From contig CAZLEV010000011.1 of assembly GCA_964558645.1 (NCBI GenBank), forward strand, positions 34,072-98,071: a stretch of DNA of 64,000 nucleotides, written 5' to 3'. Both the position numbers and the translations under genes were made by a program. The DNA comes from an uncultured archaeon (lineage in GTDB: Archaea; Asgardarchaeota; Thorarchaeia; Thorarchaeales; Thorarchaeaceae). The notes below the pieces were generated by a model that did not search any database, was not told where the DNA came from, and saw nothing but the letters and a program-made list of their open reading frames with translations. Positions 48,685-56,593 of the stretch are shown in pieces; positions within the stretch are counted from its first letter, which is position 1; every line of letters begins with the position of its first letter.

Positions 48685-49338
48685 TCAGATACGGAGTGCC
48701 CCCACCACAGCCGCTGCCTGGAACCAGAAAGACACTCGAACTAGCAGTTCTTCCAGAAATGCAGCCTTTCTATCAGGTTTGATATCTTCTGGCCATCCTT
48801 CGCTCCGATACTCATTGAACTTCTCGAAGGTCTTGTCATACTGTGTAGTCAATGGAATCTCAACCATCTTGTCACAGACAGTCACAAGAGCTCTCACAAA
48901 GAGAACAAAGTCGAGATCCAGTTTGAGAATCCATCTTGTGAAGAGCTTGAAGAACTTCCGGTTATTGATATGACTCCAGTCAATAGCCTTCAGACCTTCT
49001 CTGTTCGTTCCTTCGATTCTCTCGCTGTTGAAATCACAGTCGCGCTTAAAGGTACAGCGACTGCGGGCATAGACTTGCCGGTCAGATATCCAGATGAGAA
49101 TCTCGTGAGGACCCTTAGAACGCATCATCTCTTTGTGTTCACCGGAGGGAAACATGAGCTCGACAACACGCGATTGCTTGAATGGCCCGCCCTTCTTGAA
49201 ATAGAGATGCAGTGCTAAGGTTACGGGCGGCAGAGCGTTGACCGGGTAGTATTCATCAGGGTCGGGCATGGTCAGTAGACACTCAGTGTCAATCCCCTGA
49301 TATGCCTTCTCCTTCTCCGAATCAGAAGAAATCTGCAA
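48685..49338 (-). CDS. Hypothetical protein downstream of the Rab-like GTPase
   Basis: 217-aa ORF with protein-like composition that fills the gap between genes, 30 bp from the GTPase stop. Confidence 0.7.
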   Translation of the reverse strand: MQISSDSEKEKAYQGIDTECLLTMPDPDEYYPVNALPPVTLALHLYFKKGGPFKQSRVVELMFPSGEHKEMMRSKGPHEILIWISDRQVYARSRCTFKRDCDFNSERIEGTNREGLKAIDWSHINNRKFFKLFTRWILKLDLDFVLFVRALVTVCDKMVEIPLTTQYDKTFEKFNEYRSEGWPEDIKPDRKAAFLEELLVRVSFWFQAAAVVGALRI

Positions 49339-49368: not shown

Positions 49369-49917
49369 TCAGCCCGAACCAGACTCTCTGTTATGAACAA
49401 GGGTCGTTCCCAGCTGTTCGAATACATCGAGAATCCCCTCACCAGTCTTAGCTGAAGACTCAAGATAGGGCATTCCGTGAGCATCTGCGAACTCCCTGCC
49501 TTCAGATGGAGCAACAACCCTATCAGGAAGGTCAGTCTTGTTTGCCACCAGCACTAAGGGAATGTCCTTGCCGATTGCTTTTCTGAGTTCGTCAAGCCAC
49601 TCCTCGAGCACGATGAACGTTCTGCGTCGGCTGACATCGTAGACCAGCAGTCCGCCGCTCGAACCTCGGTAGTACATCGGACGAAGAATCTGAAAACGGC
49701 TTTGCCCTGCCACATCCCAGATCTGCAATTTCACAGTGAGGGAATTACCGTGCATGGATGGAATCTCTATATTCTTGACTGCAAACTGGCTTCCGATTGT
49801 TGTCTTGTAGTCTGTTCGAAAGAAACCGTGTGAAAACCTGGTGACAATTGCAGTCTTACCAACTGCACCTTCACCAAGGACAACAATCTTGAACAGATAG
49901 TCATACGAGCTACTCAT
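49369..49917 (-). CDS. Rab-like small GTPase
   Basis: YDYLFKIVVLG, GEGAVGKT, TIG, KLQIWDVAGQ, RF..LRPMYYRG, NKTD and ESSAK motifs. Confidence 0.95.
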   Translation of the reverse strand: MSSSYDYLFKIVVLGEGAVGKTAIVTRFSHGFFRTDYKTTIGSQFAVKNIEIPSMHGNSLTVKLQIWDVAGQSRFQILRPMYYRGSSGGLLVYDVSRRRTFIVLEEWLDELRKAIGKDIPLVLVANKTDLPDRVVAPSEGREFADAHGMPYLESSAKTGEGILDVFEQLGTTLVHNRESGSG

Positions 49918-50937: not shown

Positions 50938-51050
50938 GATATCTTCCTCATTCCAAGTTACCGTCCAGCGGACATATAGGTCTATGTCGCTTGGTCGAAT
51001 CAACGGTACCTTTTTCTCTGGGTGAGTGCAGCATCAGGCCGGTGGCTCAT

Positions 51051-52430
51051 ATGTCTGACAGGCTCTTTGGAACTACGGGCGTGCGTAAGATCTACGGTGA
51101 GGAGTTCTCCCTTGATATGGCCCTTGACCTTGGTCGGGCACTTGGCACATATCTCAAGAGAGGAAACGTGCTTCTTGCCCGAGACGCAAGGACCACCGGC
51201 TCCATGGTTGAAGATGCATTCTCAGCGGGTGTGCTCTCAACAGGAGTCAACGTCCTGCGAGCTGGCGTGGTTCCAACCCCGACTTTGGCATTCCTCACAA
51301 GCTATCTGGATATGGACACAGGAGTTATGGTCACAGCATCTCATAACCCCCCTGAGTACACGGGCATCAAGTTCTGGGGTTCAGACAGCATGGGCTACAC
51401 TCCTGATATTGAAAGACGACTCGAGGAGATATACCATTCACATGACTTCATAGCAGCTGCATGGGACGGGCTGGGAGAGGAGGAATATCTCGATGCACCC
51501 GAGTGGACACACATCGATGAGCTTGTGAAACGGACCGATGTTGCGGCCATTCGTCAGAAGCAATTCAAAGTAGTTGTGGATCCAGGGAATGGAGCGGCGT
51601 GTGTGCTCACACCCTATCTCATGAGAGAGCTGGGTTGCAGCGTCATCACGCTCAACGGTCAGCTGGATGGACACTTCCCCGGTCGAGAGAGCGAACCGGA
51701 TGAATCAACACTTGTTGACCTAGCCAACATGGTCAAATCATCAGGAGCCGACCTTGGCATTGCTCATGACGGGGATGGGGACAGAGTCGTCTTCGTGACT
51801 GAACACGGAGAGGTTGTCAGAGGAGACCGTACTATCGCTCTTCTTGCTCGAGACTCTCTCCAGAGAGAGCAGGGCGGAGTCATCGTCACCACTGTTGACA
51901 GCTCAAAGGTCGTGGATGAGACCGTTGAGCAAGCAGGAGGACGCACAATCAGGACGCCTGTCGGCGACATTCAAGTTGCTGTTAAGATAAGAGAAGAGAA
52001 AGGTCTGTTCGGAGGAGAGGCCTGTGGGGTCTTCATCCATCCAGACTTCCATCTGGCGCCAGAGCCCTTTCTCACTTCCTGCCATGTTCTTGAGATGATG
52101 GCATCACAAGGAAAGGGTTTCGGAGAGCTGATCTCAGAGATACCCGTATATCCCCTCAAGAAATCGAAGCTGCAATGCCCCAACAGCAAGAAACCTGCAG
52201 TGATGGATAGGCTTGCGGAAGTTCTACCAGATGAAATGAATGATATTACTGACATACTTACTGTGGACGGGCTTGGCATATCCCTCAAAGGGGGGTGGCT
52301 CCTTGTCAGGCCGTCAGGTACCGAACCAGTCATCAGAATAACATGCGAAGCCCAGTCTGAAGAGGCCGTTCAAGAGATTCTTGACAGAGCAACAAGTGTC
52401 ATCAGCAACACGATTGCGACGACTAGTTGA
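51051..52430 (+). CDS. glmM: Phosphoglucosamine mutase / phosphohexomutase
   Basis: LFGTTGVR, TASHNP, DGDGDR, GGE and RPSGTEP motifs. Confidence 0.88.
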   Translation: MSDRLFGTTGVRKIYGEEFSLDMALDLGRALGTYLKRGNVLLARDARTTGSMVEDAFSAGVLSTGVNVLRAGVVPTPTLAFLTSYLDMDTGVMVTASHNPPEYTGIKFWGSDSMGYTPDIERRLEEIYHSHDFIAAAWDGLGEEEYLDAPEWTHIDELVKRTDVAAIRQKQFKVVVDPGNGAACVLTPYLMRELGCSVITLNGQLDGHFPGRESEPDESTLVDLANMVKSSGADLGIAHDGDGDRVVFVTEHGEVVRGDRTIALLARDSLQREQGGVIVTTVDSSKVVDETVEQAGGRTIRTPVGDIQVAVKIREEKGLFGGEACGVFIHPDFHLAPEPFLTSCHVLEMMASQGKGFGELISEIPVYPLKKSKLQCPNSKKPAVMDRLAEVLPDEMNDITDILTVDGLGISLKGGWLLVRPSGTEPVIRITCEAQSEEAVQEILDRATSVISNTIATTS

Positions 52431-52522
52431 ACACCAGGTGCGCAAGAGAGCAAATCAGCAAATGCAGACAAGCTTTATAGCACAACAGGGTCTCAGACAC
52501 CTTGAAAACGAGGTCTCATATC

Positions 52523-52933
52523 ATGAGTAATGGCGATGATGATTTCATCAAATCGGAGTTTGAATGGGCTCTGAAGGACCCTACCGAAGAGAAGCTACGA
52601 GGCCTCGGTGAGATTGTCGATACCATCACAAAACGGCTTGTTGAAGCAATAACTGAGCTTCAGAGCGACCTCTACGAGCTTCAGACTGCCGTACAGAGTA
52701 TGGAGTCGAAACTGAACTCGCTGGACTCCCGGGTGGCAACTGGAGGAGTGGCACCATCAGCTACATCTTCTGCATCCTCAGCATCTTCCGCAACAGAAAC
52801 TCCAGATGAACCCATGGCTAGAGCACCGACGCCCAAGCCGGCTCCGGCTGCAGGCCCGGGCGGCATGATGTCTGAACTGAAACAGCTGCTTGCTGCAAGG
52901 AGAAGAAAAGCTGAGGGTGGAGGCGGGGAATAA
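52523..52933 (+). CDS. Coiled-coil protein with a Pro/Ala-rich linker and a C-terminal Ena/VASP FAB-like (WH2-related) motif
   Basis: Clean heptads ITELQSDLYELQTAVQSMESKLNSLDSRV; linker APTPKPAPAAGP; tail GGMMSELKQLLAARRRKA; own TTTATA box at about 52474. Confidence 0.75.
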   Translation: MSNGDDDFIKSEFEWALKDPTEEKLRGLGEIVDTITKRLVEAITELQSDLYELQTAVQSMESKLNSLDSRVATGGVAPSATSSASSASSATETPDEPMARAPTPKPAPAAGPGGMMSELKQLLAARRRKAEGGGGE

Positions 52934-52938
52934 CCCGC

Positions 52939-53613
52939 TCAGATCAAGCGTCGGACATGGTTTCCCGGATAGAACGGGCCTGTATGTTTAAGTAGAGAAA
53001 CGGAGAATGCTTCGGCCCTCTCGCAGGCCGATTGGACTCCTCTCAACCGGGTTCGTGCATCGTAGAATCTCTCGTAGTAACCGCCAGCCTTGCTGGTCTG
53101 GCTCTTGTGACAGCGTAATCCCTCTAATGCGGTATTATAGCTCTCAGTGACACTGACCATCACATTAGGTCGTGAGAGAAGAGTGTTGACCTCCATATGA
53201 TAGATACGACTGATTCGATGCGCTCTCTCGAACCGAGTCACGTGTGATGCCCATTCAGCTGCGTCGGCAACGATCTGCGCGCATGCTACATGGTTTCTAT
53301 TGTAATCCTTCTCGGAGTGGGTGATAATAATGTCTGGACGCCACTCGAGGATTGCTTGAATGATTAGCTTCTCCACACTCCTGTCAACAGCAAAGTCATC
53401 TCGCTCCCCTGTCAGAAGATTACGGATACCTAGTATCTTACATGCCTCCTTCAGCTCTCGGTTTCGAGCTGGACTTCCTGTGAGGCACAACAGATCCACG
53501 TCTACTCCCTGACTGCTATGAGACGCTATCGTTCCACCGGCACCCAAGCATTCATCATCGGGATGCGCAGTAACAACGAGAATTGAGCCATCGTCAGAGG
53601 GATTCATGGTCAT
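52939..53613 (-). CDS. bshB: PIG-L family deacetylase (BshB-like)
   Basis: AHPDDE, RPDIIITH, HKSQ, RG and AEAF motifs; divergent from bshA. Confidence 0.8.
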   Translation of the reverse strand: MTMNPSDDGSILVVTAHPDDECLGAGGTIASHSSQGVDVDLLCLTGSPARNRELKEACKILGIRNLLTGERDDFAVDRSVEKLIIQAILEWRPDIIITHSEKDYNRNHVACAQIVADAAEWASHVTRFERAHRISRIYHMEVNTLLSRPNVMVSVTESYNTALEGLRCHKSQTSKAGGYYERFYDARTRLRGVQSACERAEAFSVSLLKHTGPFYPGNHVRRLI

Positions 53614-53696
53614 CTCAGACCCAGTTCTACTAATCAAGCTTTGGCCTGACCATTTGTCTTAAAACCCCCCGTTTGCTGTTCAGTACAGTGACCAGC

Positions 53697-54857
53697 ATGA
53701 GGATAGGAGTCAATCTATATGCCTCAGTGGGCGGCTCAGGCTACCTCGCGACGCGCTTGGGACAGCACCTTGCAGACCGTGGCCACGAGATTCATTTCAT
53801 CACCTACCAGAGGCCGTTTAGCCTGATGTGGGAGCAAGCACGAGGTGTCTACGTTGACCTCGTGGACAGTTTTGATTATCCGCTCTTCAAGTCAACTGGA
53901 ACCCCCTACACCATGACCCTTACATCAAAGATTGTAAAAGTGGCTCGCGATTCCAAACTCAATCTCATCCACTCGCACTATGCAATCCCTCATGCTATGG
54001 CCGCATACATGGCAAGAGAGATCATCGGTATCCCCTATGTGGTAACACTACACGGTTCAGATGTCCACACCCTTGGACTCGATCCTGCATATCGCCCCGT
54101 TGTTAAGCACACGGTAGAAGAAGCAGATGGTGTCACAGCAGTTTCAGAGTTCCTCCAGAAGAAGGCCTATGAGGAACTCGGCATCGAAAGGGAGATTCAT
54201 GTCGTCCCTAACTTCATCGATGTTCAAAGATTCACTCCCATGGAGGGAGTGCGACTCACAGTGGAGAGCGGCTGTGTGTCTCTTCGCAGATCAGAGGAAC
54301 CCGAAGATCTTCATCCAGACGAGATGGTGCTGTTGCATGCATCGAACTTCCGTCAAGTGAAGAGAGTGGTCGAGCTCGTAGAGATCATGAGGATCGTAGT
54401 CGACCACTATCCTGATACGCGGCTAGTGATTGCAGGGGATGGACCCACCCGCATGCATGTTGAGCGACGAATAGAGGCCCTTGACCTCTGCCAGAATGTG
54501 CATCTCTTGGGAGTGAAGAGCAACATGAGAGAGATCATGTGTTCATCAGATATCTTTCTGCTCAATTCTACCTTAGAGGGCATGCCACTGGTCCTTTTGG
54601 AGGCTATGGCATCCGAACTACCAGTTATCACGACACCCGCAGGAGGCATACCAGAGCTTGTACGCCCAGGGAAGGACGGTATTGTCACGAAGGGCTTCGA
54701 GAAGGAAGAGTTTGCGGGTGCAATCCTAGAGTTGATAGAACATGATGCCCGAAGAAAAGAACTGGGCAAGGCGGGACGAAAGAGAGTTGTTGAGCAGTAC
54801 TCAGCTGAGAAGGTTGTGCCCATGTATGAGAGAGTCTTTGATAGAGCAGTGGAATGA
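53697..54857 (+). CDS. bshA: N-acetyl-alpha-D-glucosaminyl L-malate synthase (GT4)
   Basis: GGSG..AT.LG..LA.RGHEIHFITY, YPLF, HSHYAIPHA, VTLHGSD and SNFRQVKR. Confidence 0.9.
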   Translation: MRIGVNLYASVGGSGYLATRLGQHLADRGHEIHFITYQRPFSLMWEQARGVYVDLVDSFDYPLFKSTGTPYTMTLTSKIVKVARDSKLNLIHSHYAIPHAMAAYMAREIIGIPYVVTLHGSDVHTLGLDPAYRPVVKHTVEEADGVTAVSEFLQKKAYEELGIEREIHVVPNFIDVQRFTPMEGVRLTVESGCVSLRRSEEPEDLHPDEMVLLHASNFRQVKRVVELVEIMRIVVDHYPDTRLVIAGDGPTRMHVERRIEALDLCQNVHLLGVKSNMREIMCSSDIFLLNSTLEGMPLVLLEAMASELPVITTPAGGIPELVRPGKDGIVTKGFEKEEFAGAILELIEHDARRKELGKAGRKRVVEQYSAEKVVPMYERVFDRAVE

Positions 54858-56593
54858 TAGAACGGAGATGCCAACTTTTGAGAGAGAGCGTAGCTGAAGT
54901 CTATAAAGACTACATCTGGAAAGAGGAAATGCAGGATGCCGCCCAGTATCTCTATAGTTGCCCGCCAGTCTATTTCGGCGGTCTCAAGGAGAGAGTAGGA
55001 AGACTCCGAGAGGAATACTTAGAGACGCACTGGTTCACTGACGAACGAATGCAGATACTTGAGAACACCCTGGAAAGGACAAGTCGCAACCTGGGTGCTC
55101 TAACACCAGCAGTTAGGAGTAGAATCTCAGAGCTTCGACATGGAGCCATAGAAGGAGCACACCAGAGCATTGCCTTCGGCGGCCCATGCTATGTTCTGAA
55201 CAAGGCAGCAACAGCATCGATACTTGCAGATGTCACGTCTGATGATGATATTCGCGTAGCCGCGTATTTCTTCGTTGCAGACTATGATGAGGTCCAGGCT
55301 GAACTGATCAACACAAGGACCCCACTGCTGGGATCTTCAGGCAATCTGCTCAGTATTCCGGTTCCCAAGGAGTTCAAGCATTCGCCCGTCAGTGTTCTAC
55401 CCCTTCCTGAGCATACTTGGTACGAAGAGGCAGAAGAGAGTATCCGGATGGGGTACAGACCGATGATCAAAGACCTCGACAACAGGGCGCGCATCATATA
55501 CGAAGAGAGACTCGAGCAGATTCTCTCCATAACAAGATGGAGTTTCGTAAACTCAGACACACTGGGGGAATGGGCGCGACGAATCCTAGCCCGTCTGTTC
55601 AATGTCGAGGGAAACTTGGGAATACCAATTGTCGCGTATTCAGACCCTCAGATACGGAAGCTGGCAACTCTTGGAATGGAATTCCTTCTGAAGAAACAGA
55701 ACCGAGAGAGATTCTTAGAGGCCCAGGATCAAGCAACCGACAGAATCATCGAACTAGGTCTGGAGCCCGGCTCGGGGAGAAGAGATCGCTCCTACGTTCC
55801 GTTTCTATACGAGTGTCCGGAGAAAGGCTGCAACAGGAGTAGATTCGAACTGCAGTATTATGCCCGGGAAGACACTGCGACGCTGTCAGGTAGGTGCCCG
55901 TCATGCCATCAGTACTTCACAATCGAAGTTTCAGCAGATAATCCTGACTTGAGTGACCATGCCGACTACCTATCTCCTCGTGTAGACTCGCGGCAGTTCA
56001 TTGTGGACATGATGATTCCCACTATGTGCCATATTGGAGGGCCAGGTGAGACCGCCTATTACGCCCAGGTGATTCCCGCTGCCGACGCTCTAGACATCCC
56101 ATTCCCGGAGTTTGTGAAGTATCCACGGCTCTTCTTCAACACACCATGGAGTGAAGCTCTGGCAAACCAGTTGGAGAACAGGGGTGAGCCGGTCTTGCAT
56201 GGTCGCACGCTCTTCAAACTGCTGGGGAAGTCAAGTGCAGCCAGAAGAAAAGAGAACTATGATGAGATGAACTCCGCCATCAAGAAACTGGGCAACCATA
56301 TCAGAGACCGGTACGATGTCATAGTGAAGAGGGTGGCGGAGATAGAGAAGCAGAGAGAAAACTCAAGCGGTGAAGAAGACGAGGAACTTCAAGGTATCAA
56401 GTTTGACCTCGAAATGTACCTCAGCTGGGCATATGGGCGATATTCTGCAGAGAAGTCCGTGCAGGAGTCCTCTTGGTCCTGGATAGAGTGGGCAATAAAC
56501 TCTGGACTGGCGGATCTGTTCGGTCCTTACGAGAGAAGCTATGTTGAGCAACTTAAGAATGGAGCCACGATGTGGATAAACTTCATGACATAG
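54854..56593 (+). CDS. bshC: Bacillithiol biosynthesis BshC-like protein
   Basis: GAHQ..FGGP.Y.LNKA, D.DE, SPRV..R, GGPGETAYYAQV and QE motifs; ATGA overlap with bshA. Confidence 0.85.
   Translation: MIERRCQLLRESVAEVYKDYIWKEEMQDAAQYLYSCPPVYFGGLKERVGRLREEYLETHWFTDERMQILENTLERTSRNLGALTPAVRSRISELRHGAIEGAHQSIAFGGPCYVLNKAATASILADVTSDDDIRVAAYFFVADYDEVQAELINTRTPLLGSSGNLLSIPVPKEFKHSPVSVLPLPEHTWYEEAEESIRMGYRPMIKDLDNRARIIYEERLEQILSITRWSFVNSDTLGEWARRILARLFNVEGNLGIPIVAYSDPQIRKLATLGMEFLLKKQNRERFLEAQDQATDRIIELGLEPGSGRRDRSYVPFLYECPEKGCNRSRFELQYYAREDTATLSGRCPSCHQYFTIEVSADNPDLSDHADYLSPRVDSRQFIVDMMIPTMCHIGGPGETAYYAQVIPAADALDIPFPEFVKYPRLFFNTPWSEALANQLENRGEPVLHGRTLFKLLGKSSAARRKENYDEMNSAIKKLGNHIRDRYDVIVKRVAEIEKQRENSSGEEDEELQGIKFDLEMYLSWAYGRYSAEKSVQESSWSWIEWAINSGLADLFGPYERSYVEQLKNGATMWINFMT

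Follow-up and report, generated by a model that had tools for sequence, protein, structure and literature searches.

An undescribed Asgard protein family combining a coiled coil, a flexible arm and a conserved end helix that resembles the F-actin-binding motif of VASP

Background

Human VASP contains a GAB motif (residues 223-239), a FAB motif (residues 259-278) and a tetramerisation coiled coil (residues 343-380), and the FAB together with oligomerisation suffices for the bundling of actin by VASP (PMC10340426). In the archaeal crenactin regulator arcadin-2 of Pyrobaculum, a linker that is not conserved and is presumably unstructured separates the core from a small conserved helix at the C-terminus; this helix is the sole actin-contacting element and docks in a hydrophobic groove of crenactin (PMC5173319). 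The known actin regulators of Asgard archaea are profilins and gelsolins (ProGel, 1DGelX and 2DGel; PMC7444086, PMC9433394). In the literature searched, only these two classes were found to be named, and no Asgard VASP-like or WH2-like factor of the kind considered here was found to be described. A 2026 study of Asgard crawling motility assigned formin and Ena/VASP-type polymerases to the more complex machinery of metazoans and amoebozoans, and motility without them is poorly understood.

The window analyzed here (the whole stretch of DNA, 64,000 nucleotides in length) belongs to the assembly of a Thorarchaeote that is 3.63 Mb in size and 92.8% complete. It harbors the gene of a 136-aa protein, P0001, which is a member of an undescribed family of Asgard proteins with the layout "coiled coil - flexible arm - end helix". 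As the nearly invariant end helix matches the FAB of VASP better than expected by chance, the family would be a good candidate for an actin-binding factor.

Results and discussion

The gene and its surroundings

The ORF at 52523-52933 on the plus strand (stop included) translates into P0001, in agreement with the original prediction. A homology search returned 130 close homologs of P0001, the best matches being Thorarchaeota "hypothetical proteins", and a profile search showed that the family gene is present in a single copy in its own genome, where it matches profile A1 at 9.9e-56 with positions 1-130 covered. These 130 homologs, together with matches in 79 of the 85 genomes of the same family at E values around 1e-50, establish the ORF as a genuine gene. 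The TATA box of its own that had been proposed for this ORF was also found, as a putative element, and the features at the gene are as follows:

52474..52479, plus strand: putative TATA-like box TTTATA, 44-49 nt 5' of the ATG (read off the sequence)
52510..52514, plus strand: Shine-Dalgarno-like GAGGT, 8 nt ahead of the ATG (read off the sequence)
52523..52933, plus strand: CDS of the 136-aa protein (translation; 130 homologs; single copy)

A promoter and terminator scan of bacterial type returned nothing, as expected with an archaeon. A 201-nt contig from a salt-lake metatranscriptome covers positions 52826-53026 with 8 mismatches (approximately 96% identity) and reaches from the 3' end of the family gene into its convergent neighbor, the PIG-L gene, although neither strand nor transcription can be read from it.

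In the window, the region 50991-56593 encodes a phosphohexomutase, a PIG-L deacetylase (minus strand), a GT4 glycosyltransferase and a BshC-like gene, which constitute a bacillithiol-type cluster. The same order was observed at all four Thor loci compared (L003-L006), with the family gene following a GlmM-like phosphohexomutase and preceding the PIG-L / GT4 / BshC-like cluster. A functional tie to these flanking genes was considered and rejected: members of the Loki type lie in quite different neighborhoods, and we therefore read the synteny in Thor as a lineage-wide feature rather than a functional one.

Architecture of the protein

The AF2 monomer model of P0001, which was built from a 22-sequence alignment (pTM 0.38), contains three helices at aa 3-18, 22-72 (51 residues) and 114-132, with pLDDT above 90 over aa 30-70, while aa 73-113 are disordered (pLDDT below 55). 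Along the protein, the following features can be distinguished:

52529..52576, plus strand: short acidic helix with W15, aa 3-18 (AF2); W15-A16-L17 is invariant in Thor and replaced in Loki-type members
52580..52738, plus strand: N-block (P20..EEK..G29..V..I) running into the heptad coiled-coil helix, aa 20-72 (AF2, heptad register; P20, E23 and G29 conserved family-wide)
52739..52861, plus strand: disordered S/A/P-rich linker of variable length and sequence with a conserved P112, aa 73-113 (pLDDT, alignment gaps)
52862..52918, plus strand: conserved basic end helix MMSELKQLLAARRRKA, a FAB-like putative docking motif, aa 114-132 (AF2; conservation; hhalign to VASP FAB 91.7%)

Most of the architecture read from the sequence in the original prediction was recovered, with some corrections. 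The acidic N-terminus containing a Trp is present (W15), and the terminal GGMMSELKQLLAARRRKA lies where it had been placed, at aa 113-130 (52859-52912). The proposed coiled coil is supported as well; in the best heptad register, L, I, V, M or F occupies 75% of the a and d positions across aa 21-75, which gives the coiled coil a length of about seven heptads instead of the four that had been counted. The S/A/P-rich low-complexity linker was likewise confirmed, but its description as a Pro linker does not extend to a polyproline tract, since Pro accounts for 15% of its residues and always stands singly, with no Pro-Pro pair. The idea that the acidic, Trp-containing N-terminus represents a conserved VCA-like "A" motif had to be given up, as this segment is Thor-specific and helical in the AF2 model.

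The end helix is terminal, basic and amphipathic, with a hydrophobic moment of 0.19-0.61 and a small hydrophobic face (M, L, L, A/F). A Pfam hmmscan of P0001 and 22 family members at E <= 10 gave only coiled-coil noise below threshold, with neither WH1/EVH1 nor VASP_tetra among the matches, and when the tails of Thor and Loki members were searched against PDB sequences, nothing relevant was returned.

Distribution and conservation of the family

A family profile built from 28 Thor members was run against 400 Asgard genomes and matched 265 of them. In the Thor family to which the window belongs (f1), the gene is near-universal and single-copy, the 79 matches among 85 genomes being at about 1e-50. 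Other Asgard families were matched at 1e-8 to 1e-14, for example 121 of the 135 genomes of f22, 12 of 14 in f21, all five in f15 and five of six in f16. At the same sensitivity, no match was obtained in f4 (0/3) and f29 (0/4), though those families have actin. An exhaustive profile search returned 557 representatives at E <= 1e-3, and the named members were labeled as Thor-, Hel- or Odinarchaeia or as Promethearchaeota, the exceptions being one cluster labeled "archaeon" and one close match labeled Bathyarchaeota. Thus, apart from these two, every taxon-labeled member carries an Asgard label.

Thor members are 43-63% identical overall (85% for one close relative), and their conservation is concentrated in two blocks. 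The first is the N-block, EFEWALKDPTEEKLRxLGEVV..I..KL. The second, the tail GGMMGELKxLLAARR[RK]K, hardly varies (approximately 100% identical), with M116, E118, L119, K120 and L122-R127 unchanged throughout Thor. Members labeled Loki, Hel or Odin retain P..EEK..G..V..I of the N-block and carry the tail in the form P.[SN].R.A[IL]..E[LI]K.LF.K.[RK], in which E-L-K-x-L-[LF] is kept. Across the family, L119 and K120 are invariant, and at least 90% of the sequences share M116, E118, L122 and a Pro ahead of the helix. Only Thor members have the Trp, the Met pair and the RRRK cluster. A full-length match with both blocks (the N-block and the E-L-K-x-L-[LF] tail) was taken to define the family, and both blocks are present in the gene of the window.

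The tail is the best-conserved segment of the family and the linker is variable and gapped in the alignments; this combination had been set beforehand as a test of the original prediction and was borne out. In Loki-type members, a polyproline stretch directly precedes the tail, with runs of up to five Pro (PPPPP), GPPGGPP repeats and a Pro content of 24-40%. A homology search with the tail region against longer proteins yielded nothing at E <= 10, which is weak evidence because E values scaled to the database size are too strict for a 40-residue query.

Similarity of the tail to the VASP FAB

The FAB 20-mer of human VASP (taken from PMC10340426) was compared by Smith-Waterman alignment with all ORFs of 60 aa or longer, 22,277 in total, from a six-frame translation of the genome to which the window belongs. 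The P0001 ORF ranked first, with a score of 52 against 39 for the next ORF, and the genome-wide maxima of 60 shuffled FABs were 40.4 +/- 2.1 and at most 46. When the 15-mer core of the FAB without the Gly run was used, the P0001 ORF was third in the genome (36 vs 38 and 37). In hhalign, a 37-member tail alignment matched the VASP FAB with a probability of 91.7% and a score of 27.4 over 18 columns at 50% identity, while 200 composition-preserving shuffles of this comparison scored 8.3 +/- 2.5, with a maximum of 19.5. A tail profile of Thor members only scored 30.5, and one of Loki members only, which are without the RRRK, scored 19.3 (shuffle maximum 13.2).

Other actin-binding motifs were not matched in the same way. 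The N-WASP WH2 helices (PMC6770570) fell within the shuffle range when aligned to the tail profile by hhalign, as did the VASP GAB peptide, which scored 5.9-6.9, and no second motif was found in P0001. In addition, Pfam WH2 (PF02205) was not matched in 22 members at E <= 10, and L-[KR]-[KR]-[VT] does not follow the helix. WH2 and GAB were therefore rejected as explanations of the tail. As the FAB exceeds the shuffles and WH2 and GAB do not, the likeness goes beyond chance and is specific to the FAB; judged from sequence comparison, it is statistically real, short, and strongest in Thor. The resemblance originally proposed for the tail, which included both the EVH2 FAB and WH2, is thus upheld for the former and dropped for the latter.

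How this likeness arose is a separate matter, and a single 18-column motif does not separate homology from convergence. Ena/VASP proteins are not known to be pan-eukaryotic, and shared ancestry of the tail with the FAB is therefore doubtful; convergence appears at least as likely.

Actin and gelsolin in the host genomes

The organism was expected to be an Asgard archaeon with actin, and its genome indeed encodes one actin (438 bits to PF00022). The actin gene (182196-183332, plus strand) and a two-domain gelsolin gene (184807-185328, minus strand) lie convergently on contig C4, about 1.5 kb apart. The family gene was never found beside actin in the loci examined; the P0001 gene is on another contig (C11) than its own actin, and in genome G147 the two are 95 kb apart. 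Pfam searches for profilin and ARPC4 in the genome of the window gave no match, and the controls likewise gave no match anywhere.

A copy of the tail motif was also found outside the family. In one closed genome of the Loki type, the motif lies inside a 697-aa protein (L134:1611-3701:+) with a C-terminal transmembrane helix, in the arrangement polyPro - QTLRGGMTEELKTLFSK - polyPro, without the N-block. Its gene starts 114 bp 3' of the gene of an extended two-domain gelsolin (L134:412-1473:+), which has a linker of PEPV repeats and a Zn ribbon. This adjacency was considered as a conserved link to gelsolin and rejected, being absent in the related genome G138.

Two Thor proteins (L130:489-1508:- and L131:449-1360:-) consist of one gelsolin domain, a Pro/Thr-rich linker, a conserved C-terminal domain and a Lys-rich tail, and match the 1DGelX architecture (PMC7444086). 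By profile, the domain X of this architecture showed no homology to the P0001 family. No fusion of the module to gelsolin was detected among these 1DGelX-like proteins and two single-gelsolin proteins of genome G179, none of which match the profile.

GTPase fusions and a BAR-fold neighbor

In at least five representatives of 399-464 aa (P0169, P0183, P0225, P0244 and P0246), the whole module is located C-terminal to an Arf/RagA-like GTPase. The GTPase domains match PF00025 and PF04670 at about 1e-11 to 1e-24, and one of the proteins is annotated as ADP-ribosylation factor-like. The fusions also have a helix-hairpin-helix-like N-terminal region, for which one weak, sub-threshold HHH_5 match was obtained (P0225).

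As the fusions match the family profile over positions 10-131, the N-block and the tail travel together even in this context. These are exactly two conserved surfaces joined by a long flexible arm, an arrangement that would also suit a tail binding the N-block of the coiled coil, in auto-inhibition or in a head-to-tail scaffold independent of actin. We regard such a self-interaction as very unlikely, and the motif copy in the 697-aa protein, which stands without an N-block, speaks against it.

A second association was found in Loki-type genomes. In f22, a 206-aa gene lies directly upstream of the family gene on the same strand in 32 of 33 matches, in ten genera with comparable coordinates; in f21, it is adjacent in reversed order in one genus and not adjacent in three other genomes. 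The 206-aa protein (L068:5264-5881:+) has no Pfam match and is modeled as three long helices (pLDDT 92), for which the best structural matches are arfaptin (TM 0.60-0.66), the I-BAR domain of IRSp53 (0.55-0.58) and FAM92A (0.55), with Foldseek E values of about 4e-3. The look-alikes returned by a language model agree with a BAR fold. This family is present in 122 of the 135 genomes of f22 and 13 of the 14 of f21, and it was detected in none of the 85 genomes of f1 at E <= 1e-5. Together, the GTPase fusions and the BAR-fold neighbor suggest that the module acts at membranes under the control of small GTPases.

These associations bear on the identity of the partner. The same adaptor might dock its end helix on another conserved protein, such as a small GTPase, the BAR-fold protein, an MIT domain of the ESCRT/Vps4 type or another Asgard "eukaryotic signature" protein, in which case the FAB likeness would be convergent or coincidental. 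The recurrent genomic links are only those to the Arf/Rag-like GTPase (by fusion) and to the BAR-fold gene (by adjacency), and actin has none; the fold is matched best by BAR domains of the arfaptin type, which bind small GTPases (titles of PDB 1i4d and 4dcn); and all tests for WH2 and GAB were negative. The invariant polar residues E118 and K120 also point to a specific interface with a protein, without naming the partner. However, the tail is best conserved in f1, where no BAR-fold family member was detected, only a minority of the members are GTPase fusions (five among the 150 representatives listed), and no other motif class was matched in any test, while the match to the FAB is statistically specific. 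On balance, we consider a partner of this kind possible but on the unlikely side.

A membrane could take the place of a protein partner. The end helix would then be a membrane-targeting amphipathic basic helix, the protein a coiled-coil tether on a flexible arm, and the helix a GTPase anchor in the fusions, like the C-terminal polybasic tails of eukaryotic small GTPases. The terminal, basic and amphipathic helix behind a flexible linker has the appropriate character; it stands at the C-terminus of Arf/Rag-like GTPases, and the Loki-type neighbor has a BAR-like, presumably membrane-binding fold. Nevertheless, membrane-targeting helices usually keep their physical character rather than their sequence, whereas here all classes share an invariant E-L-K-x-L-[LF] and the helix has only a small hydrophobic face. 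The conservation of E118 and K120 across classes, together with the internal motif copy in a 697-aa protein that already bears a transmembrane anchor, argues against a purely membrane-binding helix, which we judge to be improbable.

Several other neighbors were recorded. In the window, a Ras/Arf-family small GTPase (49369-49917, minus strand; PF00071, 4e-48) adjoins a 217-aa protein without a Pfam family (48685-49338, minus strand), and this pair recurs upstream in two of the Thor loci, L003 and L005. A relationship between the 217-aa protein and the Loki-type BAR-fold neighbor was considered, but the two proved to be unrelated. Elf1-like zinc-ribbon proteins (PF05129, 2e-18) with a C-terminal extension of approximately 120 aa recur less than 2 kb away from the family gene in genomes of the Loki type (L065:6667-7284:- and L068:8379-8954:-).

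Proposed role

The reading that we tentatively put forward, with a chance somewhat below even, is that P0001 acts as an oligomeric adaptor, binding actin filaments through its end helix in the manner of a FAB and tethering or bundling them. The coiled-coil helix (aa 22-72) would oligomerise the protein, and the floppy 40-residue arm would present the nearly invariant helix of 15-19 residues, which its conservation marks as a putative docking peptide. The most likely partner would be the cell's own very conserved actin, bound as by the FAB of Ena/VASP, so that two or more tails per oligomer could tether or bundle filaments. In Loki-type relatives with polyproline, the protein might also feed profilin-actin to filaments.

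The conservation of the tail fits a slowly evolving protein partner, and actin is 92-95% identical within Thor and 72-81% identical across Asgards. For actin we further count the FAB match, the arcadin-2-like layout, the polyproline of the Loki-type members, the modular motif copy by a gelsolin, the GTPase fusions, the BAR-fold neighbor, and the presence of actin and gelsolins in the host genome. Against it we count the limitation of RRRK and the Met pair to Thor, the third rank of the 15-mer core, the negative results for WH2 and GAB, the missing linkage to actin in the loci examined, the conserved sugar/thiol-metabolism neighborhood in Thor, the lack of matches in f4 and f29 at the sensitivity used, and the chance of convergence. 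Actin is a candidate partner: gene order provides no link to it, and part of the FAB likeness is restricted to Thor.

A broader proposal is that the family supplies the missing factor by which Asgard archaea bind or assemble actin filaments, one that predates eukaryotes; it would be an oligomeric adaptor with an end helix that binds actin as the FAB does, tied in some lineages to polyproline, Arf/Rag-like GTPases and BAR-fold proteins; we consider it possible but rather doubtful. If it were true, a GTPase-BAR-actin effector circuit would already have existed in archaea before eukaryotes. A small, near-universal protein of Asgard archaea with the ability to tether, bundle or elongate actin filaments would close the gap in the understanding of motility. 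Because it is linked to an Arf/Rag-like GTPase and to a BAR-fold protein, one could then address directly how the coupling of membrane and cytoskeleton under GTPase control originated, using no more than a protein of 136 aa and a peptide of 20 residues. With a partner other than actin, the family would still be a widespread, unannotated docking-peptide adaptor in the closest archaeal relatives of eukaryotes.

Comparison with known systems

P0001 and VASP have in common the helix pattern G-G-[ML]-M-x-E-[LM]-x-x-[LM]-L-A-(A)-R-R-[RK]-K-A, and both combine such a helix with an oligomerising coiled coil (predicted for P0001) and a flexible region rich in Pro, Ala and Ser. In contrast to VASP, P0001, with its 136 aa, lacks EVH1, GAB and a polyproline of the profilin-binding type, it carries a coiled coil with canonical heptads towards its N-terminus whereas the tetramerisation domain of VASP is C-terminal, and the basic cluster is not conserved outside Thor. 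Of the VASP modules in permuted order that the original prediction had seen, the FAB-like helix and the coiled coil thus remain, and a profilin-binding polyproline does not; the VASP tetramerisation domain is lacking as well. The WH2 proteins of the WASP/WAVE/thymosin-beta4 type (PMC6770570) resemble the family in having a short amphipathic helix next to Pro-rich regions that is modular across contexts, but the family lacks an LKKV-type motif after the helix and a Pfam WH2 match. On these grounds of sequence, P0001 is neither an Ena/VASP protein nor a WH2 protein.

The profilins and gelsolins of Asgard archaea occur in the same organisms and in the same presumed pathway as the P0001 family, although their folds are unrelated to it. 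Arcadin-2 was likened to P0001 by its described layout, not by sequence. Its gene lies in the arcade cluster beside crenactin and its product depolymerises filaments, whereas the P0001 gene is unlinked to actin and belongs to another lineage. Both proteins nevertheless place a conserved helix at the C-terminus, behind a core and a linker that is not conserved, and because the arcadin-2 helix of this layout docks in the groove of crenactin, it provides an archaeal precedent for the docking proposed here.
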